A program made the position numbers and the translations under genes. DNA of 64,000 nt from an uncultured Halobacteriales archaeon (GTDB lineage Archaea > Thermoplasmatota > E2 > JACPAO01 > JAHFTW01): NCBI GenBank assembly GCA_964627625.1, contig CAZVJB010000011.1, positions 12,175-76,174 of the forward strand. Reading direction: 5' to 3'. Shown here one piece after another: positions 9,545 to 50,312 of this stretch (positions are counted from its first letter, which is position 1; each line of letters opens with the position of its first letter). The notes beneath the pieces were generated by a model, which made no database searches, had not been told where the DNA came from, and worked only from the letters and a program-made list of their open reading frames with translations.

Positions 9545-9549
9545 ATCAA

Positions 9550-25398: not shown

Positions 25399-28300
25399 TT
25401 AGCGCCGGGCCATGTCGTGCACCAGTTGTTCGGGCGATGATGCAGAGATTGACGCGGCTGGGCGACGTATCCGGAACATGACGGCAGCGACTCCGGCGAC
25501 AACCAGGACGGCCGCCGCCACCGCAGCCATTATGGCAAAAGTTGGACCGCCTGACGCCTCCACAAGCGTCGTGGGAACCGAATCAGGGCCCGCAATCGGG
25601 GCGCTGGCCTCAGGCGCAGGCTCACTCGGGCCTGCTGCTTCACTCGTGGCGCGAACGGTGATGGTTTGCACCGCGATGCTGGATGAGTGGCCGTCACTTA
25701 CCTCGAGAACGAAGCGTAGCGTTTCGCCTGAGGCGTCCGGCATCGTGAACGTAGCTTTGGCCGTCGTGGCATCGTCAATGATTACGGCTGGTCCTTCCCA
25801 TTGCGTCCACTTGAAGCTGAGCGAATCGCCGTTGCCACCGCCCGATTGCGCGCCGTCGAGGATGACGATTTGGCCGACGTCCGCTTGCCCTTGCGCAGCG
25901 ACCTTGGCCACGGGCGAAGGCGTAATGGATTCTAGGGCCACCATGATGCCGTCCGTGCCCGAGCGTGAACCATCTTCTGCGGTGAGTTCAAAGTAGAGGA
26001 CGACCGCGGACCCGGTCAGTAGGGGTGCAGTAAAGGAGGGCGTCTGCGTGTTGGCGTTGATGAGTTGGACTTTGGGGCCGTAGGTCTGCGTCCAAGTCGT
26101 CGTGGCGGTGGTGGTTCCGGTGATGGTGGCTTGCAGTTTCACGACTGCCCCTTCCGCGACTGTTTGGTCAAGTCCGGCATCGACCTTGAGTGGCGTCGCT
26201 GTCGGTGGATTAGCCGGGTTGGGGTTGTTGCCGGGTGGGGTTCCTGGCCCATTTGGGGGTCCTGGATTGCTGCCTCCGGATGGGGCGATGACATTGATGC
26301 TCCGGCATGCCGTTTTGCCCGTTGTGCCCCAAATATCGGTCACCTGTAGGCAGGTCGAATAGGTGCCAACAATGCCGAAGATATGGATTGGACTCCGCCC
26401 ATAAGATGTGTACCCGTCGCCGAAGTTCCAGCTCCAGGCAGTGACGGAATCGCCGGCATCTGGATCCGATGATGCATCAACGAACGTGGCCGGTTCCCCG
26501 ACCCGGACCGTGGTTGGGCTGGCGGTGAAAGCCGTGCTTGGCGCACGGTTCTCCTGCACGTGGATGGTGACCGTTGCACACGAATCGCTTACGAGGCCTA
26601 ACGCATCCCTCGCCTTGTAGGAGAAGGTCGCGTCTCCGACGAATCCCGGATTGGGCGTGAATACGAAATGGCCAGCGTTAGGGGGTTCGAGATTGACCGG
26701 CCACAATATTCCCGGCATGAAGGGCGCAGGGCATGAATTCAAGTCAATCCCGATGATGTTGGCCTCCGCGTCTACATCATTGGCGAGGATGGATGGCCGG
26801 CTCTGCGTCATGGTGTCGAGGTAGCCATTCTTGATGGCCACGTAGTAGTCCTCCGTGGCCGTCGGTGGCGTGTTGGTGACGGTGACGTTGCACGTTGCAA
26901 ACGGGCTGGTGGCGCCATCGTCGTCCGTCACGCTAAGTGTTACCGCAAACGTGCCGGCAATTGCCCATGACGCCATCGTGGACGCATCGCTGGCCGATGT
27001 GGGGGTTCCGCTTGGGAAGGTCCACGACCAGCTGGCAATTGTACCGTCTGAATCGGATGAGCCGGCAGAGCTGAAGGCAATCGATTGCCCCGGCGCAAAA
27101 GGTGGCGCGGTTGTGACGCCGCACGCCGCGGTTGGGGCTTGGTTGACCGTGCAGCCGATGTCCAATTGGACTGTCACCGTGTTCAGGAGGGTGTTGGTGG
27201 TTGCGTCCTTGAGTTGGTACTGGAAACTGTCCCCCGTTGCCCCGCAGTAGTCGGTGTCTGCTTGGTAGACGAATCCGCCTTTGTTGTCAGAGTTCCACGA
27301 GAAGGACCCGCCGCTGGCCACGTGGGAGGGGCCACTTACGAGCAAGGCTAGGATGGCGTGGTTGGCTGTGTCCTGGTCGTTGCAGAGCACGCCCTTGTAG
27401 GGGCCACCTGTGGCCGACGGAACGTTGGCAGCGCAGGGAGCCGCCGTAAACAACGAGTTAATCGTAGCCGAGAACGTGTCCGCCACCGCAGCGGGCGGGC
27501 AAGCGATGTTCAATTGCACTGTGGCGGTGTTCAGCATCGTGTTCGTGCTGACATCCTTCAATTGGTACTGGAAGCTGTCGCCGGCAAATCCGCAGTAGTC
27601 GGTTGCGGCCCGATACGTGAAGCCGCCCTTGTTGTCGGCATCCCACGTGAAGGACCCGCCCGGCGTCGTCTGGGTTGGGCTTGTTACCAGGATTGCCTGG
27701 ATTGCGTCGCCGGCGGCGTCCTGATCATTGCACAAGACCCCCTTATACGGGCCCCCTGGTGCGGCAGGGATTCCCACCGCGCAGGCTGCGGCCGAGAACA
27801 ACGCATTCGCATCGACGGCAAACGTATCCGCGACGGCAGCTGGGGCTGCCGGTGGCTCGGATGGCGTGCCACAGGATTCTGGCGTCCCAGGACTCAGGTT
27901 TGGGCCCCCCGTATATCCATCGTACGCCCTGAGGTAGTAGCAATACGTGGCACCCGTTGTCAGGCCGGTATTCGTGTATTCACACGGCGTCGAGGCGCAT
28001 GCACCGCCCGCGGGGATGTTCATGATGAACGTCTCGGCTCCGCTGGCGCCGCGGTACATAGCGTAGCCCTGCACGCCGCTGGCGCCGGAGCCGGCTGGCG
28101 TGCAACCGACGGCAGGACAGTCGCCCGACGAGGCGGTCCACGTGAGTTTCAGTGACGTCGCAGTCGGGGTCCCAACGGCCAACGTCGATGGCGCAGTAGG
28201 CTTGAAGTCGGGCGTAACTGACACCGATGCACTCGACAAGCTTTCCCCCGCCACGTTGGCGCCGGGTTGGATTGGGAATTGGGGGCAATTCACGCCGGAA

Positions 28301-29280
28301 ACTTGGTAAGCGTACGTCTGTCCGCTAGTCAACCACATGTCGTCGTAACTTGTCGCGCCCGCCGCCATCGTGTTCAGCAGGCTAAAGGGTGCGCCGCCGA
28401 CGCTGCGATAGATGCGCCACTCCGTAACCGGTTGGGCTCCGTTGTCCACGGGGGTCCAACTGAGGCGGACGGTGTTGTCGCCAATGGCCTGGGCGGAAAG
28501 GCCAACTGGCGGACTTTGCCACATGCGAAGGGGATTGCCAGCGCCGTTTCCGCTGTCGCCGACGGTCCATTTTCCCGTCCCCGGTTGGGTGTTGCTCGTG
28601 CCAGCGGCCAGGTAGTCGCGAGGCGTTCCGGGCCCCACCGGGGTTGGTTCTCGCTGGGCGTTGGCCATCATGCCAAGCCATTGGTCACCGTCCTTCGGCT
28701 GAAGTGCCGGATTCCCCCAGAGCGTGCGCTTGACCGTGTACTTGAGCTCGTTACAGACCCAGGTCGGAGCGGTCAGGAAATTGGTGCCTTGACCCGATTC
28801 GGGCGGGCTCCCCGCATTGCTGTACGGATAAAGTTTGGAGTTGATGAAGCCCGTCGCGAATTTAGCCGTGGCCGCCGCGTGATATTGCTGCCCATTGGCC
28901 ACCGTGAAGTCAACGGGGTAGCGCACGGCCTCGCCAACGTTGGCGGCCGCTGTCGGATCAAAGAGCGGGCTGGGCGACCCTACTTTAATCCAGAAGTAGA
29001 TGTTGTCTGTGTCCGATGACATGCCGAGCCGAATCAATTCGGCCCTCGCGGCATCCGGACTGCCGGGGCTTCGGTCGTCCACCGGTTCGGAGGCACCTGG
29101 GGTGCCGTCCGGGTTCAGGGCCATGACCTCGAACCCTGTGCCATTGCCCGCCGCCGCAAGTTGCGCGCACACCGCCATGGCTCCCAGAAGAAGCAGCGGT
29201 AGAAGTGCGGCCTTGAGAATGACGTCAACACGGAGCTTTCCGGTTATGCAAGCGGGTTCGACAGGACTCAACGTGGCCAC
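25399..29280 (-). CDS. Large cell-surface protein (1293 aa) with signal peptide, FN3-like and PKD domains and a C-terminal TM anchor with basic tail
   Basis: The N-terminus LLPLLLLGAMAVCAQLAAAG is signal-like. A PKD signature is present (SVTAWSWNFGDGYTS), plus FN3-like repeats (TAPSTLAVGTPTATSLKLTW). The C-terminus is AIMAAVAAAVLVVAGVAAVMF followed by RIRRPAAS. Confidence 0.7.
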   Translation of the reverse strand: MATLSPVEPACITGKLRVDVILKAALLPLLLLGAMAVCAQLAAAGNGTGFEVMALNPDGTPGASEPVDDRSPGSPDAARAELIRLGMSSDTDNIYFWIKVGSPSPLFDPTAAANVGEAVRYPVDFTVANGQQYHAAATAKFATGFINSKLYPYSNAGSPPESGQGTNFLTAPTWVCNELKYTVKRTLWGNPALQPKDGDQWLGMMANAQREPTPVGPGTPRDYLAAGTSNTQPGTGKWTVGDSGNGAGNPLRMWQSPPVGLSAQAIGDNTVRLSWTPVDNGAQPVTEWRIYRSVGGAPFSLLNTMAAGATSYDDMWLTSGQTYAYQVSGVNCPQFPIQPGANVAGESLSSASVSVTPDFKPTAPSTLAVGTPTATSLKLTWTASSGDCPAVGCTPAGSGASGVQGYAMYRGASGAETFIMNIPAGGACASTPCEYTNTGLTTGATYCYYLRAYDGYTGGPNLSPGTPESCGTPSEPPAAPAAVADTFAVDANALFSAAACAVGIPAAPGGPYKGVLCNDQDAAGDAIQAILVTSPTQTTPGGSFTWDADNKGGFTYRAATDYCGFAGDSFQYQLKDVSTNTMLNTATVQLNIACPPAAVADTFSATINSLFTAAPCAANVPSATGGPYKGVLCNDQDTANHAILALLVSGPSHVASGGSFSWNSDNKGGFVYQADTDYCGATGDSFQYQLKDATTNTLLNTVTVQLDIGCTVNQAPTAACGVTTAPPFAPGQSIAFSSAGSSDSDGTIASWSWTFPSGTPTSASDASTMASWAIAGTFAVTLSVTDDDGATSPFATCNVTVTNTPPTATEDYYVAIKNGYLDTMTQSRPSILANDVDAEANIIGIDLNSCPAPFMPGILWPVNLEPPNAGHFVFTPNPGFVGDATFSYKARDALGLVSDSCATVTIHVQENRAPSTAFTASPTTVRVGEPATFVDASSDPDAGDSVTAWSWNFGDGYTSYGRSPIHIFGIVGTYSTCLQVTDIWGTTGKTACRSINVIAPSGGSNPGPPNGPGTPPGNNPNPANPPTATPLKVDAGLDQTVAEGAVVKLQATITGTTTATTTWTQTYGPKVQLINANTQTPSFTAPLLTGSAVVLYFELTAEDGSRSGTDGIMVALESITPSPVAKVAAQGQADVGQIVILDGAQSGGGNGDSLSFKWTQWEGPAVIIDDATTAKATFTMPDASGETLRFVLEVSDGHSSSIAVQTITVRATSEAAGPSEPAPEASAPIAGPDSVPTTLVEASGGPTFAIMAAVAAAVLVVAGVAAVMFRIRRPAASISASSPEQLVHDMARR

Positions 29281-29432: not shown

Positions 29433-31406
29433 ATGCATTGTCTACGCGGGGCTGGACGGTTGGCCTGCGTTGCTCTACTGATGGTTTGGGTGGCGTCAAC
29501 CGTAGAGGCGGCGATTACGCCCATTTCCCCGGCCGATCCCGATGGCGCGCTAGTCTTCGCTCAAGCCATGGCACCAGGTGAGGCTTCCACGACTCTCGTC
29601 ACAAGCGCGAAGTGGATCCATTATGGGAGCTGCAACACGATGGTGTCGCCCACCATCAAGTGCCCCGCCCCTGACGGCCCATCGGCGCTTGGTCCCGCGG
29701 GCTATGCTGATGCGGCCCTCACGGAACCGTTCGGCATTCGGGACGGCCGGTTGGTGGCCCTCATGACGACCGGATTGGCGGCCGCCGCCGACCAACCCCA
29801 GAGCCGTGTTCAATCCAGCGACAACCGCGACCGCATCGGCGATGTCTTTGATGTAACCATTATCCAAATTGATTTGGAGGTACCAAGCGGCCACGACTGC
29901 TTGGCATTCGATTTCCAGTTTCTGACGGAGGAGCCGCAGCGACCGGAAGGCCAAGTCACAACTGGGGACATTTTCCTTGCCGAATTGGACGCCAATACTC
30001 TCGGCGTCTCGAAGACCGGATACCTTGCGCAGCAGAATTTTGCAGTCGCACGCGTTGAGGACAAGCCTGTTCCTGCCACGAGTTTCACTCTACCGTTCGG
30101 GACCAAGCCTGCCTTGCTCAACCCCGGCAATCCAGATCAGGGGACGGTTTACGACCGCGGCTCGCAGGTTTGGACGGCGCGTACGGTCATGGCACCCGCG
30201 GGCGGCGCCCACCGCCTGTACCTGAGCTTCTACGAACGTGGCCTGGCCACACAGGACAGCGGCGTCCTTCTGGACAAGCTCGACACCTTCTCGTCGACGC
30301 AGCGGCCCTGCGGCCCGGAGGCGCCCTTGGCCAAGGTGCCGCCGCGCATTGCCTTCACGGCATCCCAGGCTCGAGCCTGTGGCATGAATTCCGTAATCTT
30401 CGAGGACAACAGCACCACCGGCAGCGAGGCTCTGCATTCGTGGGAATGGGATTTCGGTGACGGCGCGACCGGAAATGGCCAGAAAACAAACCACACGTAT
30501 GCCAGCGGGGGCTCCTACAACGTAACGCTGATTGTAACCGATCAGGGCGGCATGTCGAACTCGACTACGGTCCCAATCCGCGTCGAGGGTGAAGTGCGGT
30601 GTTCGAACGGTGTCCCTGAACAAGGCCACGACGTGCCCGCCAACACGCCGGCCGAGCAATCCCGCGGGACGACGGGACTCGGCGGCGGGCAGTGCGTTGG
30701 TGATCAGGACGGCGCTGCAGGGTGCGGGTCGGGAGGAAAGGGCGCCCCCGAGTCTCCAACAGCCGCAGGCGACTTCCTCACAAAGCATAGCCGCGACCCG
30801 ATTCCAGCACTGCTTCTTGTTCTGGCTGTTGGGTCCGGCTTAATGGCGCTTCGCCGCTGGTGGCCTGCGATTGGGGGCCTATACGCACGACTTGTTGGCC
30901 GCGACCTACTCGACCTCGAAACGCGACGGCAAATTGTCGATTTCATCCGAGCAAACCCGGGAAGCTCCTACCTAGCCGTCGCAAAGCGCCTCGAGAAGGG
31001 GCGGGGGGCAGTAGCGTACCATTTGCGCGTCCTCGTGAAGGGCGGCGCGCTCTATCGCCACGAATGGCAAGGCACAGTCGGCTACCACATAGCTGAGCCA
31101 GGTACGAATCCAGCACACTTCGACGCAAGCGCCGCCTTGCGCTCGAAGACTGCATGGCGCCTCCTGCTCCGGCTCGCCGAGTGTTCAGCCGCGGCCCCGC
31201 CGGCGCTATCCGCGGCGCTTGGCGTCTCGCGAAACACGATCCGCTACCACCTGCGGCGCTTGAGCAATGCGCGGCTAATCGAGGTGGCGGATGGGTCCAC
31301 CCGTCGTGAATACCTCTTGACGCCCCTGGGGCGGAGCTGCCTCCAGGAAGCGCATGGCGGGCATCCCACTTTCGTGCCGTCGTCCGACGCCAGCCAGCAC
31401 GCGTGA
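29433..31406 (+). CDS. Membrane-spanning one-component regulator: signal peptide, extracellular PKD domain, single TM, two cytoplasmic wHTH domains
   Basis: Signal peptide LACVALLMVWVASTVEAA. PKD signature SWEWDFGDGATGNGQKTNHTYASGGSYNVTLIVTD. TM helice IPALLLVLAVGSGLMALRRWW. Then ETRRQIVDFIRANPGSSYLAVAKRLEKGRGAVAYHLRVLVKGG and ALGVSRNTIRYHLRRLSNARLIEV. Confidence 0.65.
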   Translation: MHCLRGAGRLACVALLMVWVASTVEAAITPISPADPDGALVFAQAMAPGEASTTLVTSAKWIHYGSCNTMVSPTIKCPAPDGPSALGPAGYADAALTEPFGIRDGRLVALMTTGLAAAADQPQSRVQSSDNRDRIGDVFDVTIIQIDLEVPSGHDCLAFDFQFLTEEPQRPEGQVTTGDIFLAELDANTLGVSKTGYLAQQNFAVARVEDKPVPATSFTLPFGTKPALLNPGNPDQGTVYDRGSQVWTARTVMAPAGGAHRLYLSFYERGLATQDSGVLLDKLDTFSSTQRPCGPEAPLAKVPPRIAFTASQARACGMNSVIFEDNSTTGSEALHSWEWDFGDGATGNGQKTNHTYASGGSYNVTLIVTDQGGMSNSTTVPIRVEGEVRCSNGVPEQGHDVPANTPAEQSRGTTGLGGGQCVGDQDGAAGCGSGGKGAPESPTAAGDFLTKHSRDPIPALLLVLAVGSGLMALRRWWPAIGGLYARLVGRDLLDLETRRQIVDFIRANPGSSYLAVAKRLEKGRGAVAYHLRVLVKGGALYRHEWQGTVGYHIAEPGTNPAHFDASAALRSKTAWRLLLRLAECSAAAPPALSAALGVSRNTIRYHLRRLSNARLIEVADGSTRREYLLTPLGRSCLQEAHGGHPTFVPSSDASQHA

Positions 31407-31509
31407 GAGGCATGGCCTGCCGTTTCGTAGCTCGCCAATCCAGGGATGCGGCGCCACCGGGCAACAAACAGCCCAAAAGGTCCTTTCATGCGAGCTTTTT
31501 CACATCGTC

Positions 31510-33372
31510 ATGCAACGGGCGACGGTAAGTGTTTCGCGGCGCGTCAGCGGCGGCCTGAGGGGGCGGCTTCTGGCCGCGTTGTCCGTGCTTGGGGTTGCCC
31601 TGTTCGTCCTGCCAAACGTTCAAGCTCAGCCGGCAATCATCATGGACGATGCCGTTGCATTGGCCGTAACTTCATTCGGCAGCCTCGGAAGTGAATATGG
31701 CGGGATCTACACTTCGCCGTCGAACTGCAATACGGACGCCATGCTCGTTCGGGAACTCGCGACCAACTTCGACGCGCTGTGCGGAACCAATCAGGGCGAG
31801 GGGTGGGGTTTGGCCTACGACCTGGGCCTCGCGACCGACACAAGTTGCTTTGCGCAGGCCAGTTGGAACCCGACGACGAGCATGCCCGAGCCGACGGTGG
31901 TTTCGTTCACCGGCGACGCGACAAGTGCGCAATGGATCCTCCAGTGCGGTACCATGCAAGTGACACAAACGCTTGGCCCGGTTGACGGGCACCCCGGAAT
32001 CTTTCGCGGCGACGTGCACTTGCTCAACGTAGGCCCCGGCATAAGCCATCAGGTCATGTACCGACGATTCATGGGCTGGGGCCCCTTTGCAACGGGCTGC
32101 TGCGGCACGTTTACTGACCTCGCTACATTTCCCCTGGCAGCACCGCCCCCGGAGTCCCTGGTTGAGTCCGGGCTTGCCAACGCCGTAACGGGTGACCCCG
32201 GCGTGGAGCCAGACTATTGGATTCAAGGTCCCCCCGGCGGTTCGGATATTGCGCGGTTCTACCAACAGAGGCAGAGTGTCGTCTGGACCCTACAGTTCGG
32301 GACGTTCTTGCCAGGCGCTTGGGAGTCCTTCACGTTCTACTACGGCGTGTTGCCCGATGAAGCAACGGCTCGGGCACCACTTGCGGCGCTTGGAGCACAG
32401 GTGTACAGCCTATCCTATCCAGGGGCCGGGGTGGCAGGCGGCACACCGTCGGCGCCGAGCGGCCCGGTCGCACTTTCGGCACTGGCGGACCTGCCCCACC
32501 CAATTGGCCCCAACCCGCCGCCGCCCCCCGTCGCCGGCTTGGATTGGACGTTCACGGACTCCGGCTGCGCAACGCCAGTGAAGTTCACCGACATATCGAC
32601 TCCCGCGTACGCTCCAATTGTCGCCTGGGAATGGCATTTTGGCGACGGCGCATCCAGTGTCGAGCAGAACCCTGAGCACATCTATCGGGCCCCGGGCGAA
32701 TACGGCGTCGTACTCATCGTCATTGATGAGAACGGTTTATCGGCCTCGTTCGGTACAACAATTGTCGTGCCGCAGCAGCGGACCTGCGAAGCGGGCGGCC
32801 AATCGAACGAGACCCAACCGCGACCACCGCACGACGGCGCGGACGAGGATTTGCAAACGGATGCCGAGGGTGACGGAATACCTGATCGGCTCGATAACTG
32901 CCCTTCTGTCTCAAATGCTGCCCAGCGCGACACTGATGATGATGGCCAAGGCGATTCGTGCGACCAGGACGCCGACAACGACGGCCTTGCCGACGACGAG
33001 GACAATTGTCCCCTCATCGTGAATCCTGGCCAAACGGACTTTGATGGCGACGGCTACGGAGACGCTTGCGATGCGGACGCCGACGGCGACAAGGTAAGTG
33101 ACGGCATGGACAACTGCCTGCACCTGGCCAATCGTTCACAGACCGACGAGGATGGAGATGGAATTGGCGACGACTGCGAAATCCACATCGCGCTCATTTC
33201 GGATGCGGCCGCAAGGCCAGGCAACTTGCCCAATGAGCGGCGCGGCGTCGAAGTGGCATCTCGGCCGGACAACAATCCTATGTCATCCGGTCTGGCAATC
33301 GGGGTCAGCCTTGGAGCCGCGGCCCTGTTAGCGGTTGTGGCGCCGCGCATGCGGGGCCGCAAGCAGCAGTGA
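31510..33372 (+). CDS. Surface protein with signal peptide, PKD domain, thrombospondin-type-3-like Ca-binding repeats and C-terminal TM anchor
   Basis: The start is moved to the in-frame ATG at 31510, giving MQRATVSVSRRVSGGLRGRLLAALSVLGVALFVLPNVQAQP. PKD signature AWEWHFGDGASS...YGVVLIVID. Repeated DxDxDGxxDxxDNC units follow (DGDGIPDRLDNCP, DDDGQGDSCDQDADNDGLADDEDNCP, DFDGDGYGDACD, DEDGDGIGDDCE). The C-terminus is LAIGVSLGAAALLAVVAP followed by RMRGRKQQ. Confidence 0.65.
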   Translation: MQRATVSVSRRVSGGLRGRLLAALSVLGVALFVLPNVQAQPAIIMDDAVALAVTSFGSLGSEYGGIYTSPSNCNTDAMLVRELATNFDALCGTNQGEGWGLAYDLGLATDTSCFAQASWNPTTSMPEPTVVSFTGDATSAQWILQCGTMQVTQTLGPVDGHPGIFRGDVHLLNVGPGISHQVMYRRFMGWGPFATGCCGTFTDLATFPLAAPPPESLVESGLANAVTGDPGVEPDYWIQGPPGGSDIARFYQQRQSVVWTLQFGTFLPGAWESFTFYYGVLPDEATARAPLAALGAQVYSLSYPGAGVAGGTPSAPSGPVALSALADLPHPIGPNPPPPPVAGLDWTFTDSGCATPVKFTDISTPAYAPIVAWEWHFGDGASSVEQNPEHIYRAPGEYGVVLIVIDENGLSASFGTTIVVPQQRTCEAGGQSNETQPRPPHDGADEDLQTDAEGDGIPDRLDNCPSVSNAAQRDTDDDGQGDSCDQDADNDGLADDEDNCPLIVNPGQTDFDGDGYGDACDADADGDKVSDGMDNCLHLANRSQTDEDGDGIGDDCEIHIALISDAAARPGNLPNERRGVEVASRPDNNPMSSGLAIGVSLGAAALLAVVAPRMRGRKQQ

Positions 33373-33592: not shown

Positions 33593-34125
33593 GTGGTAAC
33601 ACAAACTACGCCGCAGGCACGTCAGAGACGCGAACGAATTCTGGACTTCGTCGCGAAGCGGCCGGGGTGTTCCCTGCGCGCCATTGCGCGAGCTGGCGAC
33701 TTGGAGGTTAAGGTGGCACGTTACCATGTGCTGTACTTGGCTAAGCGGGAGCTCGTGACGATTAGTCGTGGTCGGCGTGCCTGGTTGGTCTTCCCCGCGG
33801 GCATGCCTCCAGGCGATCCAACCACCGAGGTTGCCTTGCGTGACGCTCAATTGACGCGATTGTGGGCCTGGATGACGGGACAAACGCCGCAAAGCAAGAA
33901 AAACATCTGGACCACGCACAGCAACGGTGGGGAAGGTCACGCTCCACGACGCGCCACCGCCTAACGCGCCTTATCCGGGCCGGCCTCGTCACATGTGCAC
34001 GATACCTGGCGAATCGCATCCGCTGCATGAGCACGAAATCCGCTTTGCCTTGCCCGTTACTCGAGATGCCACCGAATCACGAAGCCGCTGCAACCTTCAG
34101 TCAAGAAGCAGACGACCGAGCTTGA
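33593..34125 (+). pseudogene. Frameshifted paralog of the two-domain wHTH regulator (frame A 33593-33964; frame B 33862-34125)
   Basis: Frame A encodes wHTH-1 (ILDFVAKRPGCSLRAIARAGDLEVKVARYHVLYLAKRELV). The second signature, HAQQRWGRSRSTTRHRLTRLIRAGLV, lies in a +1 frame. The switch is near the run gcaagaaaaacatc (A5) around 33885-33900. Confidence 0.45.
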
Positions 34126-34248: not shown

Positions 34249-35136
34249 TTGATTGGTTGCGAACTGGTGAACCTTCAATACTTGACGCCGCAGCGGGCCC
34301 GGGACCTAGCCCTTGCCTCCAGGGAGGACCGGTGGTGGCGAAGTCCGTTGAGCTTCGCTGCAGGTGTCTCGTTCCAGGCCGCCTTCACGCGTCAGCAGGC
34401 ATGGATGGAGACCTACCGCGTCGAACGTCAATACCTCGGTAGCGAAGCGGCGTTTGCCTTGGCTCGGAGTGAACCGGTCGCGCCGGCCGAGTACACGAAC
34501 GGGGTCGTGCGATGGCTGTACGGACTAGGTGACCTGGTCGATTGCCCCACTTGCACGGGAAACGGCAGGACAACGTGCAAGACGTGCAAGGGTCAGCAGA
34601 AGCTTCCATGTCCACGGTGTTCTCACCTTGACAATCATCAGCCGCCCTGCAAAAAATGCAATGGCACCCGCGTGGCCGGCCAGGCAGCCTGCGAAGCCTG
34701 CCACGGGAGGGGCTACGAGTCGCCTTGCTTGAAATGCAACGACGAGCGCGCGGTTGCTTGTCCGACATGCATTGGCCTAGGCAGCACGACGTGCGAAAAG
34801 TGCGACGGCAACGCCAAGGTTTACCAAGTCGATGTTGCGGAAAAGAAGTATGAGACTACCGCCTCCGTGAGTTGGCAAAAGCGCCCGGACCTTCCGCAAG
34901 GTGTGGTTGACTTGTTGGAACGTGAGCTCCCGCTCTCTCGAGAGGAGGCCCTGGAAAAGCCAGAAAGCGGCGTAGTGGAAGTCTTGGCTTCTCGGCGTCT
35001 TTACCACGCGGGCTTGGTTGACGTTGTGAGGTTCAAGCGACTCCTTTCCTCTACCGTCGTGAGCTGCGGCGGATACGTGCACCGCTTGGATCGCCGGGTT
35101 GGAAACGCGCTGCCTGCCGCTTGGTGGCACGCGTAG
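34249..35136 (+). CDS. Protein with DnaJ-type Cys-rich zinc-finger repeats (CxxCxGxG)
   Basis: CPTCTGNGRTTCKTCKGQQKLPCPRCS, CKKCNGTRVAGQAACEACHGRG and CLKCNDERAVACPTCIGLGSTTCEKCDGNAKV are DnaJ-central-domain-like CxxCxGxG units. There is no J domain. Confidence 0.45.
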   Translation: MIGCELVNLQYLTPQRARDLALASREDRWWRSPLSFAAGVSFQAAFTRQQAWMETYRVERQYLGSEAAFALARSEPVAPAEYTNGVVRWLYGLGDLVDCPTCTGNGRTTCKTCKGQQKLPCPRCSHLDNHQPPCKKCNGTRVAGQAACEACHGRGYESPCLKCNDERAVACPTCIGLGSTTCEKCDGNAKVYQVDVAEKKYETTASVSWQKRPDLPQGVVDLLERELPLSREEALEKPESGVVEVLASRRLYHAGLVDVVRFKRLLSSTVVSCGGYVHRLDRRVGNALPAAWWHA

Positions 35137-35562: not shown

Positions 35563-37443
35563 ATGCCAGACCCAGCCCTCCTTCCCGGATCCACGGCGGG
35601 TCGAATTCGATGCGCGGCAGGGCCCGGAACCGGGAAGACGTACCAGCTGAAGCAGCGCGTTTCCAAGCTTCTTGAGAAGGCGCCCGACAAGGGCCACCGG
35701 ATATTCGCGGTAACCTTCACTCGCCAGGCGGCTGCGCAGCTAAAGGGCGACTTGACACAGATTCAGGGCGCAGAGGAACTGGTTGCATGTACGCTCCACT
35801 CGCACGCGTTCTCTGTCCTTGGCAGCGATTCGGCAATTGCAGCCCTGGGCCGTCACCCCCGACCCTTGTTTGACCACGAGCTGCCTGCCTTCCTGCATGA
35901 TGCCGCAGCGTCTCAGGGTTCCGTTGCAGCGGCCAAGGAACGGCTCCATGCCTTCGACAGCATGTGGGCCAGACTTCAAACGGAGGAAATCGGCTTTCCA
36001 ACAAACACGGCTGACAAGGAGTTCAATGATTTCTACGTCCAGTGGATGGTCCTTCACCGTGCCATGGCTATCGGGGAACTGATTTCACTAGCCGTCAGAT
36101 ACCTGCGCAATAACCCGATGGCACCCGCCTATGACACGTTTGATCACATTCTCGTCGACGAATATCAAGACTTGAACCGCGCGGATCAGGTCCTCCTCCA
36201 GCTCCTGGCATCCAAGGGCCGCATGATGATTGTGGGTGACGACGACCAGTCCATCTATTCGTTTAGATTCGCAAATCCGGACGGCATCCGGCAATGGTTG
36301 GATGGTCAGGCCCCGCCAAAGGAAGATTATCAATTGGTTGTATGTCGGCGATGCGATGGGCGCATTGTGGACGCCGCCAACCTCTTGATTGCCAGGAACC
36401 CTAATCGCTTGAAGGGAGATTTACGGCCCTTGGCCGAAAAAGTAAACCGTGGCGAAATCAGCGTCCTTCAATGGAATACGCTGGAGAACGAACTGGACGG
36501 TTTGGCGGAGGGAATTGACCGACTTCTGAAGGCCGGAAAGGTGCCGCCGGATGGCCGCATCCTCGTCCTTGTGCCCCGCGCTGATTTTGGAAGCAGGCTG
36601 GCCACCAAATTGAATGCGATGGGGAGAACCGATGTTCGCTTCCACGGCAAGCCCAACTGGGCGGGCCTTGAGATGCAACGCGCGCTATCTCTGCTTTCCC
36701 TGGCAGATAACCAAGATGACGCGGTGGCCCTGCGTGTTTGGGTTGGCCTGGGGAGCGCCGACTACCGGCGCGCCGCCTATGCCAAGGTCATCCACCATTG
36801 CGTTCAGACGGGAGCCACCCCTCAACAGGTGCTGCGAGATGATTCCCTATGCCGGGTCACTCTACGAATTGCCGCGATTCGAGATCGATATGAGGAGCTT
36901 GAGGGCGCCCTACGCCCTCTCCTCGATATGGGCCGTGCACAGCGGCTGGCAGAGTTGTTGCCGCTCGACGGCCCAACCGCGACACTTGGAGCCGCGCTAC
37001 GCGACGTTGAAGCCACCGCGGATCCCGACCAGACCCTTTCCGAGCTTCTGCGCGAATACGTGACTGCCCAAATCGCGACGACCAAAGACGCTCGCGTAAA
37101 CATCATGACTCCCCATGCATCGAAAGGACTGGAAGCACATACCGTCGTCGTCAGCGGGCTGGTGAACGGCGTTCTTCCCTCAGCGCCTGCCCCCACATCA
37201 GTGGCAGACGTGGCCCGCCTCCAGGAGGAACGGCGTCTTATGTACGTCATCGTAACGAGGGCCAGAGAGCGTCTGATTCTGTCTTCCTTTCAGAAGGCCA
37301 CGCGCGGCGAAAATCGGGACCTCCGGTTGAATCTGGTCGGCAATTTCTATTACGTGAACACGGTGGCCAGCCGGTTCTTGGAGGAACTTGGTCTACCAGT
37401 CAAGTCTTGGCAGCGTGGAACCGCTTGGATTGAAACGCTCTGA
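35563..37443 (+). CDS. UvrD/Rep-family superfamily-1 DNA helicase
   Basis: The SF1 motifs are present: AGPGTGKT (I), AVTFTRQAAAQLKGDL (Ia), ILVDEYQDLN (II), MIVGDDDQSIYSFRFA (III), RRLMYVIVTRARERL (VI). Confidence 0.75.
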   Translation: MPDPALLPGSTAGRIRCAAGPGTGKTYQLKQRVSKLLEKAPDKGHRIFAVTFTRQAAAQLKGDLTQIQGAEELVACTLHSHAFSVLGSDSAIAALGRHPRPLFDHELPAFLHDAAASQGSVAAAKERLHAFDSMWARLQTEEIGFPTNTADKEFNDFYVQWMVLHRAMAIGELISLAVRYLRNNPMAPAYDTFDHILVDEYQDLNRADQVLLQLLASKGRMMIVGDDDQSIYSFRFANPDGIRQWLDGQAPPKEDYQLVVCRRCDGRIVDAANLLIARNPNRLKGDLRPLAEKVNRGEISVLQWNTLENELDGLAEGIDRLLKAGKVPPDGRILVLVPRADFGSRLATKLNAMGRTDVRFHGKPNWAGLEMQRALSLLSLADNQDDAVALRVWVGLGSADYRRAAYAKVIHHCVQTGATPQQVLRDDSLCRVTLRIAAIRDRYEELEGALRPLLDMGRAQRLAELLPLDGPTATLGAALRDVEATADPDQTLSELLREYVTAQIATTKDARVNIMTPHASKGLEAHTVVVSGLVNGVLPSAPAPTSVADVARLQEERRLMYVIVTRARERLILSSFQKATRGENRDLRLNLVGNFYYVNTVASRFLEELGLPVKSWQRGTAWIETL

Positions 37444-37579
37444 CAGGCCAGGGCCGGTGCCATGGCTCCAGACGGGATGAGATATCCCGCGGCGGAAAGC
37501 GTATGGGAACGGCCCCTCGCCGCTGGCCAACCATTGTGATGGAGTCGTCGTGAGACCCCGTCGCGGGCCTGCCTGCCTG

Positions 37580-38452
37580 CTATCCTGCAACGCGTCGTGC
37601 CGTTGGAACTTCCGCGCCGAATTCGAAGGCTGGAGGAACGTAGTTTGACCAGTTTGGAATGGTATCCGGCCGACGAGTAATGTATGACATGAGTTGATGC
37701 ATCAAGACAAAGAGCGAATGCTCGCCCACTTCCCATGTGGATAGGTGGTCCGGGTATTGGGCGCGTTGATCGGCCTCGCGTGCCCCCAATTTCGTCCGAT
37801 ACTCGGAGCCGATTTCGCCGAAGTTCGATACCTCAAAGTAGGTGCCGCCTCGAGCCAGGGCCTTGCCAAGCACGCAGACAAAGTCAAGGCGGTCTGGAAT
37901 GGGAATTCCCTGCTGAAGGTCGGCCAGCCAGGCATGGAGTTGCGGAGCATCGGGTCCGCTAAAGGCAAACAGCCCGCAGATGCTCTCGGTAAGGGCCGGC
38001 TTGCCCACGAATTCGTGGGGCGCGGCACGCAATTGGGTCTTCAGCTTGCGCACCTTTTCGACGACCGCCTTCAGTTCGCTACGTGAAAGGTTGGTCTTGA
38101 CCTCAAAAGTGGCGGAAACGGCGTCAGCTGTGAGCAAGGCGCTAGCTTCGTTCTCATCGAGGGGCGCATGGTTGAGGCGGTCGAAAATGACGATGTCCTG
38201 CTGCGATGTAAACTCCGCTGCGGATGCGAGAACGATGCCCGTTGCGACGCCAAACCGGGCGGGAAGTCGCTTTCGGAAAAACTCGCGCAAGATTTCCTCA
38301 CGGCTTCGACCCAGCTCCCCAGGCGCCCTCAGACGCGTGAGGCCCGCGGCTTCGGCGTCGCGACGCATGTTCTCCGCCGCAGTTCGGATGAGTTCGTGGA
38401 CCGTCACACAGCCGGCAACGCGCCTGACGTTATGGACCCGCTGCCAGCACAA
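37580..38452 (-). CDS. Hypothetical protein with possible PD-(D/E)xK nuclease-like core; convergent with the helicase gene
   Basis: QQDIVIFDR ... ATFEVKTNLS gives a hydrophobic-strand Asp followed by an E-x-K, compatible with restriction-endonuclease-fold motifs II and III. The spacing of ~27 residues is longer than typical. Confidence 0.4.
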   Translation of the reverse strand: MCWQRVHNVRRVAGCVTVHELIRTAAENMRRDAEAAGLTRLRAPGELGRSREEILREFFRKRLPARFGVATGIVLASAAEFTSQQDIVIFDRLNHAPLDENEASALLTADAVSATFEVKTNLSRSELKAVVEKVRKLKTQLRAAPHEFVGKPALTESICGLFAFSGPDAPQLHAWLADLQQGIPIPDRLDFVCVLGKALARGGTYFEVSNFGEIGSEYRTKLGAREADQRAQYPDHLSTWEVGEHSLFVLMHQLMSYITRRPDTIPNWSNYVPPAFEFGAEVPTARRVAG

Positions 38453-38568
38453 TCCATGAGGGGATAGCGCCCGAGAATGCCGTGGACCGTTGCTTCCATA
38501 CGCCGGGCCGCCGTCCCAGTCACGTGCGTCGTAGACAACCCCCCTCGTCCGACTCTTGGGAGCAGAAG

Positions 38569-39105
38569 ATGGCCTTCAGCGAGGAGCTCGACCTGAAGTT
38601 GCAGGATCTCGGTTTTTCTGCTCACTTCGCCCGTGTCCGCCGTTCCATCGATCGCTTCACGCACTTCGAGAACGAACCCATCTCGCGGGACGCCATGGAA
38701 GCCTTGGAGGACGACTTCCTCGATGCGGTCGAAGCTGTCCGGCACCTGTTCGATTGGGTCCGCAAGAATTTGCCCAGCGGCGTCTCAACCGCGGTACTGG
38801 ATGGAGTAACTCAGTTGCCAAGACAGCAGGCCGTCAAGGCCATTGGCGATGCCTCCAAGCATCGGGGCATTGAAGTTGGGCGTCTGCCGAAGTACTTTCA
38901 AGGGGACATCTGGCTGAAATCAAGCGGCCAAACGACGCGCTACGAGAGCCTCGGGGACTTCTACCGGCGCCTCGAAATCCACTGGGGCCCCCAGGTCGAA
39001 CATCCTGCTGATTTCCTACGGGCGGCCCTCGCAGACTGGGAACACCTGCTCGAGAAGGAAATCCTGGGCAGCCAAATAGCAGACCGACTACGCCCGCCCG
39101 AATAA
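38569..39105 (+). CDS. Hypothetical protein (~178 aa)
   Basis: The ORF is trimmed to the internal Met (MAFSEELDLKLQDLG...). Balanced composition, no recognisable motifs. Confidence 0.35.
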   Translation: MAFSEELDLKLQDLGFSAHFARVRRSIDRFTHFENEPISRDAMEALEDDFLDAVEAVRHLFDWVRKNLPSGVSTAVLDGVTQLPRQQAVKAIGDASKHRGIEVGRLPKYFQGDIWLKSSGQTTRYESLGDFYRRLEIHWGPQVEHPADFLRAALADWEHLLEKEILGSQIADRLRPPE

Positions 39106-39173
39106 CGTCGGCCGCCACTCACAATCCACGCCTGGAGAGCGCGACGGCATCTCATCGCCTCGATTCGCGCTGC

Positions 39174-40013
39174 TTACGGCACCCTAGTCAGTCCTCGGAG
39201 CAACTCGTGCCGTATCTTGACGAGAAGGCGCTGCGTGTTGCGGGCCTCCCATACCAGATAGGTTCCTAGACCGAGGCCCAGCCCCGCTCCAGTCAAGACC
39301 AGGGGCCAGCTTCCGCCTGACCCTATCGAGGCCACGCTCGTAATCATGCCGGCGAGAACCAAGGCGAGGCCGGCGTTTAGCTCGAATTTTAGTTGAACAA
39401 CGCGGGTGCGAAGGTAGCGGTGACCGACGGCCTCGATTTCGTAGCACAACCGCAGGTACGCATGCCAATCGCCCATTACGTCAATGTCGTCGGCGACGTT
39501 CCGGTTTCGCCGCGTCGCAGCATCCTCCAGCCCTTTGTCCCAGCGGGCCTCGAGGTGGGTCCCGGCACTCTCCAGCGTCATTCCAAACAGGAGAATTGCC
39601 CCTGACAATCCGAAAAGTGGCATCGGCTCGGCCCAAGCGATTGCAGGGACCAGACCCCAATTTGAACCGGCCAGGATCATTGCTCCAACGACCAAGGAGC
39701 CGGGCACCACCAGGCGCGTGAACGGCCCAAGGATTTCGGATTCAATGGTGGAGAGGATGCTCTTCACTCGGGGGCCACCGTTCATGGTACGCTTGAGCGT
39801 TTTGGGTCGCAGAATCCGAACCTGGCCTAGATATCCCTCGTCGGAGACCGTGACGAATCCTGTGGGCTTCCTCGTCGAATAGGATGATTCGCCAGCCGAC
39901 AGGACCGTGAACTCAACTTGATCTAGAGCCCGCGCGCGCCCTCTGGCGTTTCGGATGAAGGAAGCGCCATCCGGACCAGAACACCACCGAGGCGGTAGGA
40001 ATGGTGAGGACAT
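39174..40013 (-). CDS. Hypothetical multi-pass membrane protein
   Basis: Several hydrophobic helices (LVVPGSLVVGAMILAGSNWGLV, MPLFGLSGAILLFGMTL, LALVLAGMITSVASIGSGGSWPLVLTGAGLGLGLGTYLVW). The start is uncertain. A second small membrane ORF overlaps at 39913-40122. Confidence 0.35.
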   Translation of the reverse strand: MSSPFLPPRWCSGPDGASFIRNARGRARALDQVEFTVLSAGESSYSTRKPTGFVTVSDEGYLGQVRILRPKTLKRTMNGGPRVKSILSTIESEILGPFTRLVVPGSLVVGAMILAGSNWGLVPAIAWAEPMPLFGLSGAILLFGMTLESAGTHLEARWDKGLEDAATRRNRNVADDIDVMGDWHAYLRLCYEIEAVGHRYLRTRVVQLKFELNAGLALVLAGMITSVASIGSGGSWPLVLTGAGLGLGLGTYLVWEARNTQRLLVKIRHELLRGLTRVP

Positions 40014-40319
40014 CGCCCAAGATGCTTCCAGCCAAGGTATGGTTAAAGGTTACGAGGACTGCGAAAATTGCGGCCCAGATTGGTAGATAGGCCCCTTTGC
40101 GGGGGAGGTCACTCCATGTCATTGGCGACGCATATTGCGTTCGACTCGATAAATGCGGGTAAGAGGTGAGTGAATGCGTAGCCGCCGTTGGATTTCGGCT
40201 ACCTGTCAGCGCGAACGGATTGCCCTTAGACGCCGACGACGCCCGGAGCCAACGGTCTCGAATACTTCCGCTTCGGTCCCGAGAGCATATTTAAGCCGAG
40301 GCAAACTCCAATCAGTAGG

Positions 40320-42173: not shown

Positions 42174-42175
42174 CC

Positions 42176-43330
42176 GTGCACTCCAACGACGTGAACTCAG
42201 CCCTAGCTCGGCTCCTGAAGGATTTCCCGAAGGACAAGTTCCCGGACGAGATTCGCCGACTCGGGGCCTTGGCCCAATACAAGTACGATGAGTACCAACA
42301 ATTCGCCCCGGGACGGTACTTCATGGAGAGCCTCGTTTCGTGGCTCGGCCGCATCCCCGAGAACCATCGCCAAGCGGCCTTCAACTTTGTTCGCGACCGG
42401 CTTGTTTTCTTCGGCCGCGGTGACATCTACCACTTTGCCCAGGTCGCCTATCAACACCTCATCCGCAGTTTCCTGGTGACTTCGGAAACCCAGGCGCTCA
42501 AGCTACCGATTCACAAGCGCCCCAAGATCGCGCAATCAAGATATTTCCGGGCTCTCGAACGCAATTCCCTCTTCATTGGCCTCAGCGACGGTGCCCGCAT
42601 CGACGACTTTCGCCGCCTTGGAGAGTTGCACAACGACCAAGTCCACTCTAGCTACCACGTAACCCCAGACCGGCTGACAGAAATGATCAGGTCGTGGACC
42701 GATCACCGTGACACGAACGCGGCCGACGTCGCCGCAGAAGGGATTGGCGAAATCTCGGCGATGAAGGTCCGGCGCATCTTCCTGGTCGATGACCTTTCCG
42801 CCAGCGGTACCAGTGTCATCGACTACGACGAACTCGCTCAGAAATGGAAGGGGCGGTACCCGACGTTCATCAACCTCGTGCTGGGCGACGACGTCTACCC
42901 TGACTTGGACCAAGCCAACCTCGAAGTCCACCTCGTGTTCTACGTCGCAACGGATCAGGCGAACGCCGACGTGAAAAGCAAGATTGATACGTTCAACGCG
43001 AAACGAAAAACGGCCGGCAAACTCACGGCGTCCACGGAGATCCTGACGGTCCAGCCGTTGCCCGCGACACTTGCAGTCGGCCAGCAAGTCAATGACTCTC
43101 GGTACCGCGACTTCATCGACGCCTATGACATGACGGGCTCGTACGACAAGAGCATGGCAAAGGGCGGGCCGGATGGCCACCAAAAATGGGGCTTCAAGAA
43201 ATGCGCTCTCCCGATTGTCTTGTACCACAACTGCCCGAACAACACCATAGGCCCAATCTGGATGTACCCCGGTGAGAAGGGCATGCAAGGATTGTTCCCG
43301 CGCGTTCGCCGCCACTGGTGGGACACCTAA
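42176..43330 (+). CDS. Protein with C-terminal phosphoribosyltransferase (PRTase)-like domain and unknown N-terminal domain
   Basis: The GTG start is 3 nt after the upstream stop. The PRPP-loop-like motif RRIFLVDDLSASGTSV matches the hhhhDDhxoTGxT consensus. The ~215-aa N-terminal region is unassigned. Confidence 0.5.
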   Translation: MHSNDVNSALARLLKDFPKDKFPDEIRRLGALAQYKYDEYQQFAPGRYFMESLVSWLGRIPENHRQAAFNFVRDRLVFFGRGDIYHFAQVAYQHLIRSFLVTSETQALKLPIHKRPKIAQSRYFRALERNSLFIGLSDGARIDDFRRLGELHNDQVHSSYHVTPDRLTEMIRSWTDHRDTNAADVAAEGIGEISAMKVRRIFLVDDLSASGTSVIDYDELAQKWKGRYPTFINLVLGDDVYPDLDQANLEVHLVFYVATDQANADVKSKIDTFNAKRKTAGKLTASTEILTVQPLPATLAVGQQVNDSRYRDFIDAYDMTGSYDKSMAKGGPDGHQKWGFKKCALPIVLYHNCPNNTIGPIWMYPGEKGMQGLFPRVRRHWWDT

Positions 43331-50239: not shown

Positions 50240-50312
50240 TGGGTCTGACCAGATTTGAACTGGTGATATTCACCATGTCAAGGTGACGTCATAACCGCTA
50301 GACCACAGACCC
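50240..50312 (-). tRNA. tRNA-Val (anticodon GAC)
   Basis: The reverse complement folds by hand into a cloverleaf. Acceptor stem GGGTCTG/CAGACCC with discriminator A. D arm GTCT-AGCGGTTA-TGAC. Anticodon stem TCACC/GGTGA with loop TTGACAT. T arm ACCAG-TTCAAAT-CTGGT. No encoded CCA. Confidence 0.85.

Follow-up and report, generated by a model that had tools for sequence, protein, structure and literature searches.

A PKD-bearing archaeal protein with a tandem wHTH tail is a member of a large family of putative membrane-tethered regulators

Within the 64,000-nucleotide stretch of DNA analysed here (the window), a single gene encodes a 657-aa protein that combines a predicted ectodomain, one transmembrane (TM) helix and two wHTH units. 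As judged from its sequence, the protein belongs to a large and so far uncharacterised family of putative membrane-tethered regulators in archaea and, for that reason, is no one-off invention. Its predicted architecture also makes it a TTR, i.e. a transmembrane one-component regulator, by the architectural definition of that class (PMC10269533). In general, the architecture is well supported, and the function is what we infer: that the protein binds DNA, responds to a signal from outside the cell and controls the PKD genes beside it. The window additionally encodes the archaeal markers PAN, type II MetAP and archaeal Hsp20.

The gene and the parts of its product are as follows:

29433..31406, forward strand: PKD/tandem-wHTH open reading frame (ORF), ATG start, 657 aa
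29433..29510, forward strand: Sec-type signal peptide, aa 1-26, with R5/R9 n-region, core LACVALLMVWVAS and VEA/A cleavage motif
29511..30335, forward strand: orphan extracellular N-domain, aa 27-301, without a Pfam match
30336..30572, forward strand: PKD (Ig-like) domain, aa 302-380 (PF18911 PKD_4, E=8.6e-19, 67.8 bits, cutoff 27)
30573..30800, forward strand: Gly-rich low-complexity extracellular linker or stalk, aa 381-456 (composition, AF2)
30801..30854, forward strand: single TM helix, aa 457-474, IPALLLVLAVGSGLMALR, rich in small residues (hydropathy 1.83)
30855..30896, forward strand: cytoplasmic juxtamembrane motif RRWWPAIGGLYARL (family consensus WPxLK...PLYSRI)
30897..31097, forward strand: wHTH 1, aa 489-555, recognition helix ...GAVAYHLRVL (HTH_24, E=1.3e-11)
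31110..31367, forward strand: wHTH 2 and C-terminal helix, aa 560-645, recognition helix ...NTIRYHLRRL (HTH_20, E=3.5e-14)

The coordinates, ATG start and 657-aa length of the ORF agree exactly with a sequence-only reading of this DNA, which had proposed the order signal peptide, PKD domain, Thr-rich stalk, single TM helix and two wHTH units. That order stands, but the reading overlooked a domain of about 275 aa (40% of the protein) in front of the PKD domain and was wrong about the stalk, which is Gly-rich: the 71 residues of aa 385-455 comprise 16 G, 7 A and 5 each of E, S, P, D and T. The amended order is a Sec-type signal peptide, the orphan N-domain, PKD, the Gly-rich linker, the TM helix, an LYARL motif and two wHTH units.

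Hydropathy analysis revealed just two hydrophobic segments in the protein, at aa 6-28 and about aa 457-474. The first had been taken for a signal peptide, and the evidence agrees: its hydropathy peaks at aa 10-28 (score 2.12), R5 and R9 lie in the n-region, VEA/A is found at aa 24-27, AF2 places a helix at aa 8-28, and an equivalent signal-like N-terminal segment is present in 127 of the 150 best family representatives. The PKD domain with its WDFGDG motif was likewise read correctly; its PKD_4 score is far above the cutoff, the motif lies at aa 339-344 (nt 30447-30464), and the domain also matches PF00801 (E=5.6e-10, Pfam).

The orphan N-domain is probably beta-rich. We found zero homologues of it in an index of 5.8 billion proteins, none among the fetched proteins or the window ORFs, no Pfam family and only spurious matches in the PDB. 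Its match to the NCBIfam choice-of-anchor L profile (NF038133) is weak (E=0.022, 14.2 bits, cutoff 27) and spans profile positions 44-215 of 219. A single-sequence AF2 model of the domain was unusable (pLDDT 30). In the full-length model the ectodomain has pLDDT below 50 because the alignment covers the C-terminal module alone; the stalk, also below 50, is devoid of secondary structure.

The claim of a single TM helix is borne out by the hydropathy of the segment, which peaks at aa 455-473 and is directly followed by RRWW, by the AF2 helix at aa 457-481 and by the lack of a third hydrophobic segment. Across the family, TM segments contain 34.5% Ala and 13.8% Gly. The N-out/C-in topology, with the wHTH units inside the cell as had been predicted, is supported by hydropathy (a signal peptide and one TM helix) and by charge bias. 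Among 150 relatives, the 15 residues after the TM segment carry on average 1.86 K/R vs 0.74 in the 15 before it, and the bias points to a cytoplasmic wHTH side in 106 proteins vs 14. Past the membrane, the juxtamembrane stretch of the 657-aa protein reads WPxxGGLYARL, in which LYARL at aa 483-487 fits the family motif [LF]-[YF]-x-[RH]-[ILV]. The dominant variants in the family are LPLYSR, APLYTR and GLFSR; L483 is near-invariant among the 150 relatives, and W[PA] precedes the motif in 89 of them.

Both wHTH units proposed by the sequence-only reading resemble ArsR/MarR DNA-binding domains in sequence profile as well as in fold, with all scores above gathering. The first unit matches HTH_24 (44.3 bits, cutoff 21.9) and HVO_0163_N (PF24266; 41.4 bits, cutoff 31) at aa 496-552, and AF2 models it as three helices and a two-strand wing with pLDDT 93-97. 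Its nearest solved relative by sequence is 5duk_A, a 'putative DNA binding protein'. The second unit (pLDDT 89-97) matches HTH_20 (52.9 bits, cutoff 27) and the ArsR family HTH_5 (33.1 bits, cutoff 22) at aa 572-640. In Foldseek searches a single wHTH superposes on the CzrA, CadC, SmtB and ArsR repressors with TM scores of about 0.7-0.78. Over the 150 relatives, R498, G510 and H530 of wHTH 1 are invariant and P509, L531 and L534 are at least 90% conserved, as are P585, G586, H606, R609 and L610 of wHTH 2. The recognition-helix pattern x-Y-H-L-x-x-L is invariant or near-invariant in both units and agrees with the S-x-H-L-x-x-L of ArsR/SmtB recognition helices. Membership in the ArsR/SmtB metalloregulators themselves was rejected because the NF033788 score (36.8 bits) is below the cutoff of 55.

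The C-terminal 203 aa gave a single match in a word-indexed database, and the family surfaced only by exhaustive profile search. At E<=1e-30 this search returned 237 representatives clustered at 50% identity; there were 7,800 at E<=1e-10, and the hits at E<=1e-3 numbered 12,417. Positions 1-191 of the family profile align with aa 455-657 of the protein. In all of the 150 best representatives the module is C-terminal, behind highly variable ectodomains, and in 148 of them a TM segment lies at most 60 aa upstream of it. All 101 scanned members match wHTH families, PF24266 among them (101/101), and databases label relatives 'ArsR family regulator'. The novelty implied by the sequence-only reading was thus overstated: the TM helix with tandem wHTH defines a very large archaeal family, and archaeal TTRs have already been catalogued (PMC10269533).

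PKD-bearing relatives are rare (5 of the 150 best) and group with the 657-aa protein. The search for homologous PKD-TM-HTH architectures, which that reading had suggested, was productive: PKD(-TSP3)-TM-wHTHx2 proteins P0019, P0056, P0095 and P0165, all from other metagenomes, share a small NJ clade with the 657-aa protein. In a word-indexed search dominated by PKD matches, P0019 was the only whole-protein match with the full architecture. The literature covered, including that on HVO_0163, COG2512 and archaeal PKD plus wHTH proteins, yielded no experimentally characterised family member.

The following neighbouring genes bear on the interpretation:

25399..29280, reverse strand: divergent surface protein, 1293 aa (fn3, cadherin-like, Big_9, two PKD and a K319L-like PKD; Pfam)
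31510..33372, forward strand: downstream surface protein, about 620 aa (TSP_3, E=1.4e-24; PKD_4, E=1.8e-14; Pfam)
33593..33964, forward strand: soluble wHTH protein, 123 aa (family-module HMM, E=4.9e-9), without a hydrophobic segment
47703..48440, reverse strand: soluble wHTH ORF (family profile, E=3e-19)

The gene is indeed flanked by two PKD surface proteins, both of which begin with a signal peptide and are anchored by a C-terminal TM segment. The divergent one ends in a tail of about 25 aa. The downstream one consists of a signal peptide, an N-domain, PKD, at least three TSP3 repeats, the anchor and a tail that is short and basic; its ectodomain and that of the wHTH-tailed P0095 are homologous (BLASTP, aa 84-551, E=1e-19). 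The most probable start of its gene is 31510 (MQRATV..., encoding a signal peptide) rather than 31354, so that it does not overlap the 29433-31406 ORF. The kinship that had been proposed with the island's soluble regulators also holds, as both soluble wHTH products listed above belong to the same broad family; the 123-aa protein is 32% identical to wHTH 1 over 41 aa (BLASTP, E=1e-4).

No operator-like repeat is common to the three intergenic regions searched, in which only weak two-copy matches were found. Of the three related loci whose neighbours were compared (L001, L002 and L003), only L001 has an adjacent surface-protein gene, a TSP3 gene directly upstream of that for P0019. Gene context is not preserved in the wider family: housekeeping genes adjoin the short-ectodomain relatives at L002 and L003. 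The neighbourhood sample, 5 loci from the genome scan and 1 from the metagenome scan, was too small to assess statistically whether gene order is conserved.

With moderate confidence, we lean towards a type-I one-component archaeal regulator in which the adhesin-like ectodomain governs the wHTH pair inside the cell. Once the protein had been exported by Sec and its signal peptide removed, about 430 residues would remain outside the cell, namely the orphan domain, PKD and the flexible Gly-rich stalk. The Ala/Gly-rich TM helix would link them to the juxtamembrane stretch and the ArsR/MarR-type wHTH pair in the cytoplasm. The pair may bind DNA while tethered to the membrane (compare ToxR/CadC in bacteria and ArnR in Sulfolobus), which would be possible because the cell has no nucleus. 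The ectodomain might bind a ligand, a surface or some other surface protein with PKD/TSP3 domains, and such engagement could alter TM-helix packing or oligomerisation and so shift the geometry of the wHTH pair or its affinity for DNA. Surface-protein genes, possibly including both flanking PKD genes, would be the likely targets. The tandem wHTH may serve as an intramolecular pseudo-dimer in place of the homodimer of soluble ArsR/MarR proteins.

That the gene is an artefact, in which a PKD surface gene and a soluble wHTH gene were joined near the TM helix through a frameshift or an assembly chimera, is improbable in the extreme. The neighbouring PKD proteins do stop soon after their TM anchors, and soluble wHTH genes lie nearby. 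However, the frame is unbroken, and GC3 is uniform (0.68-0.72) along the ORF and alike on both sides of the TM helix, so there was no frameshift fusion. Additionally, a contig of 80.8 kb is recorded as encoding the identical protein, the TM helix, juxtamembrane motif and two wHTH units form one conserved unit in 148 of 150 relatives, and the PKD-...-TM-wHTHx2 order recurs independently in P0019, P0056, P0095 and P0165. The uniform GC3, the conserved unit and the homologues effectively refute a fusion artefact, and the single-gene reading holds. The protein could instead be a latent regulator: once its ectodomain is engaged, or shed at the stalk, the TM helix would be cleaved within the membrane, as in Notch or SREBP, and the freed, soluble tandem wHTH would then act on DNA. 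We consider this unlikely, although the membrane-proximal stalk of about 75 aa is disordered and Gly-rich, and the TM segment of the 657-aa protein contains a helix-destabilising G-S-G. Gly is frequent throughout the family, with at least two Gly in 115 of 148 TM segments and Pro in 43 of 148; helix-helix packing explains a small-residue-rich TM segment equally well. Since the family also has soluble wHTH members, the module can work without a membrane anchor, and some representatives (168-200 aa) are barely longer than the module and hold little else, but these may come from short contigs and be incomplete. Among the window ORFs scanned, neither a site-2 protease nor a rhomboid gene was seen.

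The tandem winged-helix tail might also have nothing to do with transcription and act, like ScpB or ESCRT-II, as a protein-interaction or structural link to chromosome-organising, division or envelope machinery, or as a non-specific tether between DNA and membrane. The best Foldseek matches of the two-domain arrangement speak for such a role, as they are ScpB (3w6j, 4i98, 2z99), ESCRT-II (2zme, 3cuq), SelB and RPC62, and so does the finding that the adhesin-like ectodomains are interchangeable with those of ordinary anchored surface proteins. These tandem matches (E about 1e-4, TMt 0.26-0.38 for ScpB and ESCRT-II) nevertheless superpose with an rmsd of 10-13 A and a TM score of about 0.3, and therefore only the domain count is common with ScpB/ESCRT-II. 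The families matched are specifically DNA-binding ones (HTH_20, HTH_24, HTH_5, MarR and MarR_2, in up to 101 of 101 members). For the 657-aa protein no ScpB or ESCRT-II Pfam family appears at E<=0.1, and ScpB and ESCRT are absent from the 25 most frequent families among the 101 members scanned. Both units also keep the His/Leu pattern of the ArsR-type recognition helix, and we judge a role outside transcription to have a low probability.

Archaeal signal transduction is poorly understood, and the locus neatly illustrates a family that is both uncharacterised and very large (thousands of clusters at 50% identity) and that pairs a variable ectodomain with one TM helix and two ArsR/MarR-like wHTH units. 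Of its members, those of the PKD/TSP3 subclade are the easiest to interpret and the best place to start. Their ectodomains share homology with ordinary anchored adhesins from adjacent genes, a hint that surface contact may be directly coupled to gene expression. One could go further and propose a class of archaeal contact receptors, in which an adhesin-type ectodomain (PKD/TSP3) binds a surface or cell and alters transcription of surface genes, possibly through Notch-like release of the tail; we hold this to be distinctly doubtful. Were DNA binding and a regulon demonstrated in a single member, a function could be assigned to thousands of proteins annotated as 'ArsR family regulator', and a type-I receptor-transcription-factor design would be established in prokaryotes.

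Among bacterial systems, ToxR, CadC and TcpP are single-pass proteins with an extracytoplasmic sensor and a cytoplasmic winged-helix domain that are thought to regulate from the membrane. The 657-aa protein resembles them in its one TM helix, its putative sensor region outside the cell and its predicted cytoplasmic winged helices. They are N-in, with an N-terminal OmpR-type (Trans_reg_C) DNA-binding domain and a C-terminal periplasmic sensor, whereas the 657-aa protein is archaeal and predicted to be N-out, with a signal peptide and a C-terminal tandem of ArsR/MarR-type wHTH; the Pfam scan gave no Trans_reg_C match for it. With soluble ArsR/SmtB and MarR proteins (CzrA, pI258 CadC, SmtB), its wHTH units share the fold, the HTH_5/HTH_20/MarR_2 profiles and H-L-x-x-L. 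Those repressors, however, form soluble homodimers, have a dimerisation helix and carry sites for a metal or ligand, and here the two units lie on one chain that is anchored by the TM helix.

TTRs, like the single-pass 657-aa protein, have a predicted DNA-binding domain and a predicted TM segment in one polypeptide; the class is defined by architecture and is no homologous family. The purely bioinformatic TTR survey of Demey et al. 2023 (PMC10269533) gives 1,384 archaeal TTRs, about 4 per genome. Of all TTRs 56% are single-pass, and HTH_20 (635) and HTH_24 (601) are among the DNA-binding domains of the class. In the portion of its supplementary text that was available, neither PKD nor TSP_3 was found (PMC10269533).

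In the literature covered, ArnR and ArnR1 of Sulfolobus acidocaldarius are the only membrane-bound archaeal transcription regulators described. These HTH one-component proteins regulate archaellum, Aap and Ups pili genes (PMC6396743) and, as predicted for the 657-aa protein, are archaeal, membrane-bound and HTH-containing. ArnR has an N-terminal HTH, a cytoplasmic HAMP-like region and sensor domain and two C-terminal TM helices, without a sizeable ectodomain (PMC6396743); in contrast, the 657-aa protein has a large ectodomain, one TM helix and a C-terminal tandem wHTH. We detected no homology between the two and no HAMP match in the latter.

As an analogy only, the protein recalls Notch, which is likewise type-I and has an ectodomain of adhesion-type repeats, a single TM helix and a cytoplasmic domain that acts in the nucleus. 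The 657-aa protein has no homology to Notch, SREBP or ATF6. Proteolytic release is essential in those eukaryotic systems; in archaea, release from the membrane would not be required, because there is no nuclear envelope.

The open reading frame at 29433-31406 (+) exists exactly as the sequence-only reading had placed it, with an ATG start and 657 aa. A 19-residue hydropathy scan of the whole protein found two hydrophobic segments only, which bears out the proposed signal peptide and single transmembrane (TM) helix. Pfam matches above the gathering cutoffs likewise recovered the PKD domain with its WDFGDG motif and the two winged helix-turn-helix (wHTH) units after the TM segment. The parts of the protein are as follows (aa positions):

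6-28, signal-peptide-like segment, basic residues ahead and VEA followed by A behind
27-301, extra N-terminal domain of about 275 residues, between signal peptide and PKD
302-380, PKD domain (PKD_4, E=8.6e-19, 67.8 bits), WDFGDG at 339-344
385-455, stalk
457-474, second hydrophobic segment, then RRWW
496-552, first winged helix (HTH_24; HVO_0163_N, 41.4 bits)
572-640, second winged helix (HTH_20, HTH_5)

The proposed order of signal peptide, PKD, stalk, TM and two wHTH units therefore stands, but it had omitted aa 27-301, and the stalk is Gly-rich rather than Thr-rich, since its 71 residues include 16 Gly and 5 Thr. For the N-terminal domain no homologue was found in an index of 5.8 billion proteins, among the fetched proteins or among the ORFs of the window, and there was no usable PDB match. 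The sole lead, a nearly full-length but sub-threshold likeness to the choice-of-anchor L surface-protein domain, scored 14.2 bits (cutoff 27; E=0.022).

A profile built on the three C-terminal modules (aa 455-657 in our protein) first found (A1) was run over 1.84 billion representatives clustered at 50% identity. It matched 12,417 of them at E<=1e-3, 7,800 at E<=1e-10 and 237 at E<=1e-30; the weaker matches must include ordinary soluble wHTH proteins. Among the 150 best matches the module was always C-terminal, preceded by anything from 0 to about 760 residues; 127 had an N-terminal signal-like segment, and in 148 a hydrophobic segment lay at most 60 residues upstream of a juxtamembrane motif, [LF][YF]x[RH][ILV] (LYARL here, consensus PLYSRI). 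In the same set, the 15 residues after the TM segment held on average 1.86 K/R, against 0.74 in the 15 before it, and the charge bias favoured the cytoplasmic side in 106 proteins versus 14. Such a positive-inside pattern is what a cytoplasmic wHTH pair would lead one to expect, in line with the earlier prediction. R498, G510 and H530 were invariant in the 150 relatives, and L483, P509, L531, L534, P585, G586, H606, R609 and L610 were at least 90% conserved.

All 101 members scanned with Pfam matched HTH_24, HVO_0163_N and MarR_2. No ectodomain family was among their 25 most frequent matches, so the ectodomains are diverse and mostly unannotated. Three of ten relatives checked carried source names: 'DNA-binding transcriptional ArsR family regulator' (P0062, P0134) and 'predicted transcriptional regulator' (P0076). 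PKD is rare, with WxFGDG in 4 of 150 and one further relative, P0095, added by Pfam. Neighbour joining on the module, which gave a rough tree lacking support values, placed our protein in a 9-member clade with all PKD-bearing members. Related locus L007 encodes two tandem paralogues, 4165-6330 and 6423-8528 (+), of 721 and 701 aa. They share an unrelated ectodomain of ~540 aa, similar by eye to those of relatives P0090 and P0134, which may represent a second large ectodomain subfamily.

Genes around the regulator include:

25399-29280 (-), upstream and divergent, surface protein of 1293 aa with fn3, cadherin-like, Big_9 and several PKD domains
31510 (+, most plausible start), downstream, surface protein with PKD and TSP3 repeats
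33593-33964, soluble wHTH ORF without TM segment (family profile E=4.9e-9)
47703-48440 (-), soluble wHTH ORF of 245 aa without TM segment (E=3.1e-19 overall)

Pfam thus found PKD in both flanking surface proteins, as described earlier, and each starts with a signal peptide and ends in a TM anchor plus short tail. The downstream gene starts about 100 nt past the regulator's stop. Its mechanical ORF begins at 31354, within the end of the regulator gene; this overlap (31354-31509) is probably not real, because the signal peptide begins at Met 31510. Relative P0095, which carries the wHTH tail, has an ectodomain homologous to the downstream protein's whole ectodomain (aa 84-551, E=1e-19); therefore, one ectodomain type occurs with and without a wHTH tail. 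A TSP3-repeat protein gene also lies immediately upstream of the gene for P0019, a relative at locus L001. Such adjacency is not a general rule, as short-ectodomain relatives at L002 and L003 adjoin housekeeping genes (an XPD-type helicase and an archaeosine tRNA-guanine transglycosylase). The claim that the wHTH units belong to the same family as the window's soluble regulators holds at the profile level, since both soluble ORFs match the profile; pairwise identity is just about 30%. Three overlapping matches in the 47703-48440 (-) protein suggest about three tandem wHTH units.

Other features of the window are:

4593-8147, 8045-9544 and 9487-11232 (+), three large ORFs in a row ahead of the RHS gene (1184, 499 and 581 aa), none with a Pfam match at E<=1e-4
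13471-22293 (+), giant ORF of 2940 aa that carries fn3 and RHS repeats (PF05593, E=2.5e-72); the product is a surface protein akin to RHS/YD-type polymorphic toxins, here encoded by an archaeon
34249-35136 (+), protein of 295 aa rich in CxxC repeats, with a weak, below-cutoff Pfam likeness to DnaJ/BSD2 cysteine-rich zinc fingers
35563-37443, UvrD-like helicase
37580-38452 (-), DUF6602
42044-43330, PRTase-CE
43318-45390, ORC-CDC6-like ATPase
50240-50312 (-), tRNA-Val(GAC), the sole tRNA in the window

The cluster at 35563-45390 resembles an island of defence or conflict genes. The tRNA lies between the variable surface-protein/defence region and housekeeping genes (PAN, MetAP, Hsp20, biotin carboxylase) and, given this boundary position, is a possible island integration site. 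Judged by its sequence, the window is archaeal; among its genes are those for a proteasome-activating nucleotidase (537.9 bits, NCBIfam cutoff 500) and, likewise above NCBIfam cutoffs, for a methionyl aminopeptidase of type II and an archaeal Hsp20. Three of five related loci, taken from species-representative genomes, are Thermoplasmata, Thermoplasmatota and Methanobacteriota MAGs. L001 (JAZJZE010000009.1) and L005 (JAJPHT010000032.1) are titled 'bacterium' and 'Proteobacteria bacterium'; both carry members of a family seen elsewhere in archaeal MAGs, and these labels may be mis-assignments.

An assembly or annotation artefact, such as a fusion of two genes near the TM segment, is very improbable. 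GC3 is even (0.68-0.72) across the N-domain, PKD, linker and wHTH parts and agrees with neighbouring genes, and an 80.8-kb contig already on record encodes the identical protein. Homologues with the PKD-TM-HTH architecture were also found, as the build recurs in independent metagenomic proteins: SP-PKD-TSP3-TM-wHTHx2 in P0019 (MES2155186.1) and P0056, N-domain-PKD-TSP3-TM-wHTHx2 in P0095 (Pfam domains confirmed on its contig), and a Kelch-like region followed by PKD-TSP3-TM-wHTHx2 in P0165.

On balance, we lean towards a type-I one-component regulator, whose adhesin-like ectodomain would modulate how the tandem wHTH pair binds DNA while at the membrane. The effect could run through packing of the TM helix; in the family, Ala makes up 34.5% and Gly 13.8% of TM-segment residues. 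With the family alignment, which covers the C-terminal module, AlphaFold2 modelled residues 457-481 as a TM helix and, after it, two wHTH units of canonical form (pLDDT mostly >90):

H496-507, H513-520, H524-536 and a two-strand wing, unit 1
H572-583, H589-596, H600-612 and a wing, unit 2

It is unlikely that the winged helices serve instead as a non-transcriptional tether. Single-domain Foldseek matches in the PDB were the ArsR/SmtB repressors CzrA, CadC, SmtB and ArsR (TM-score about 0.7-0.78, rmsd 1.6-4 A); two-domain matches were the tandem winged-helix ScpB, ESCRT-II, SelB and RPC62, which share domain count only, given an rmsd of 10-13 A. The nearest solved protein by sequence, 5duk_A (77 residues, 'putative DNA binding protein'), has the LDxxTRRxI motif in common. 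Release of the wHTH tail by proteolysis seems similarly doubtful. As for the membrane-bound regulator, we infer its DNA binding, signal and targets; a repeat search of the intergenic regions around the gene found no common operator-like repeat. The earlier observation is thus confirmed with corrections, and its interpretation partly supported. Specialists in prokaryotic signalling would not be surprised that proteins of this kind exist. The PKD/TSP3 subclade and its homologous adjoining adhesins nevertheless offer a concrete, testable way into a very large family that lacks an assigned function.

In bacterial regulators of the ToxR/CadC type the DNA-binding domain is OmpR-type, whereas here it is a tandem ArsR/MarR-type wHTH pair, and the topology is opposite. 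The protein meets the published definition of transmembrane transcription regulators (TTRs), of which a survey counted 1,384 in 367 of 404 archaeal species (PMC10269533); that survey lists HTH_20 and HTH_24 among TTR DNA-binding domains. ArnR and ArnR1 of Sulfolobus, experimentally characterised archaeal examples that control surface appendages, carry their HTH at the N terminus, then a HAMP/sensor region and a pair of TM helices at the C terminus (PMC6396743), again the opposite layout. Our protein thus falls outside every characterised TTR family and belongs to a large, unnamed and uncharacterised archaeal one; as a TTR it combines type-I topology, a tandem ArsR/MarR-type wHTH pair and a PKD adhesin-like ectodomain.
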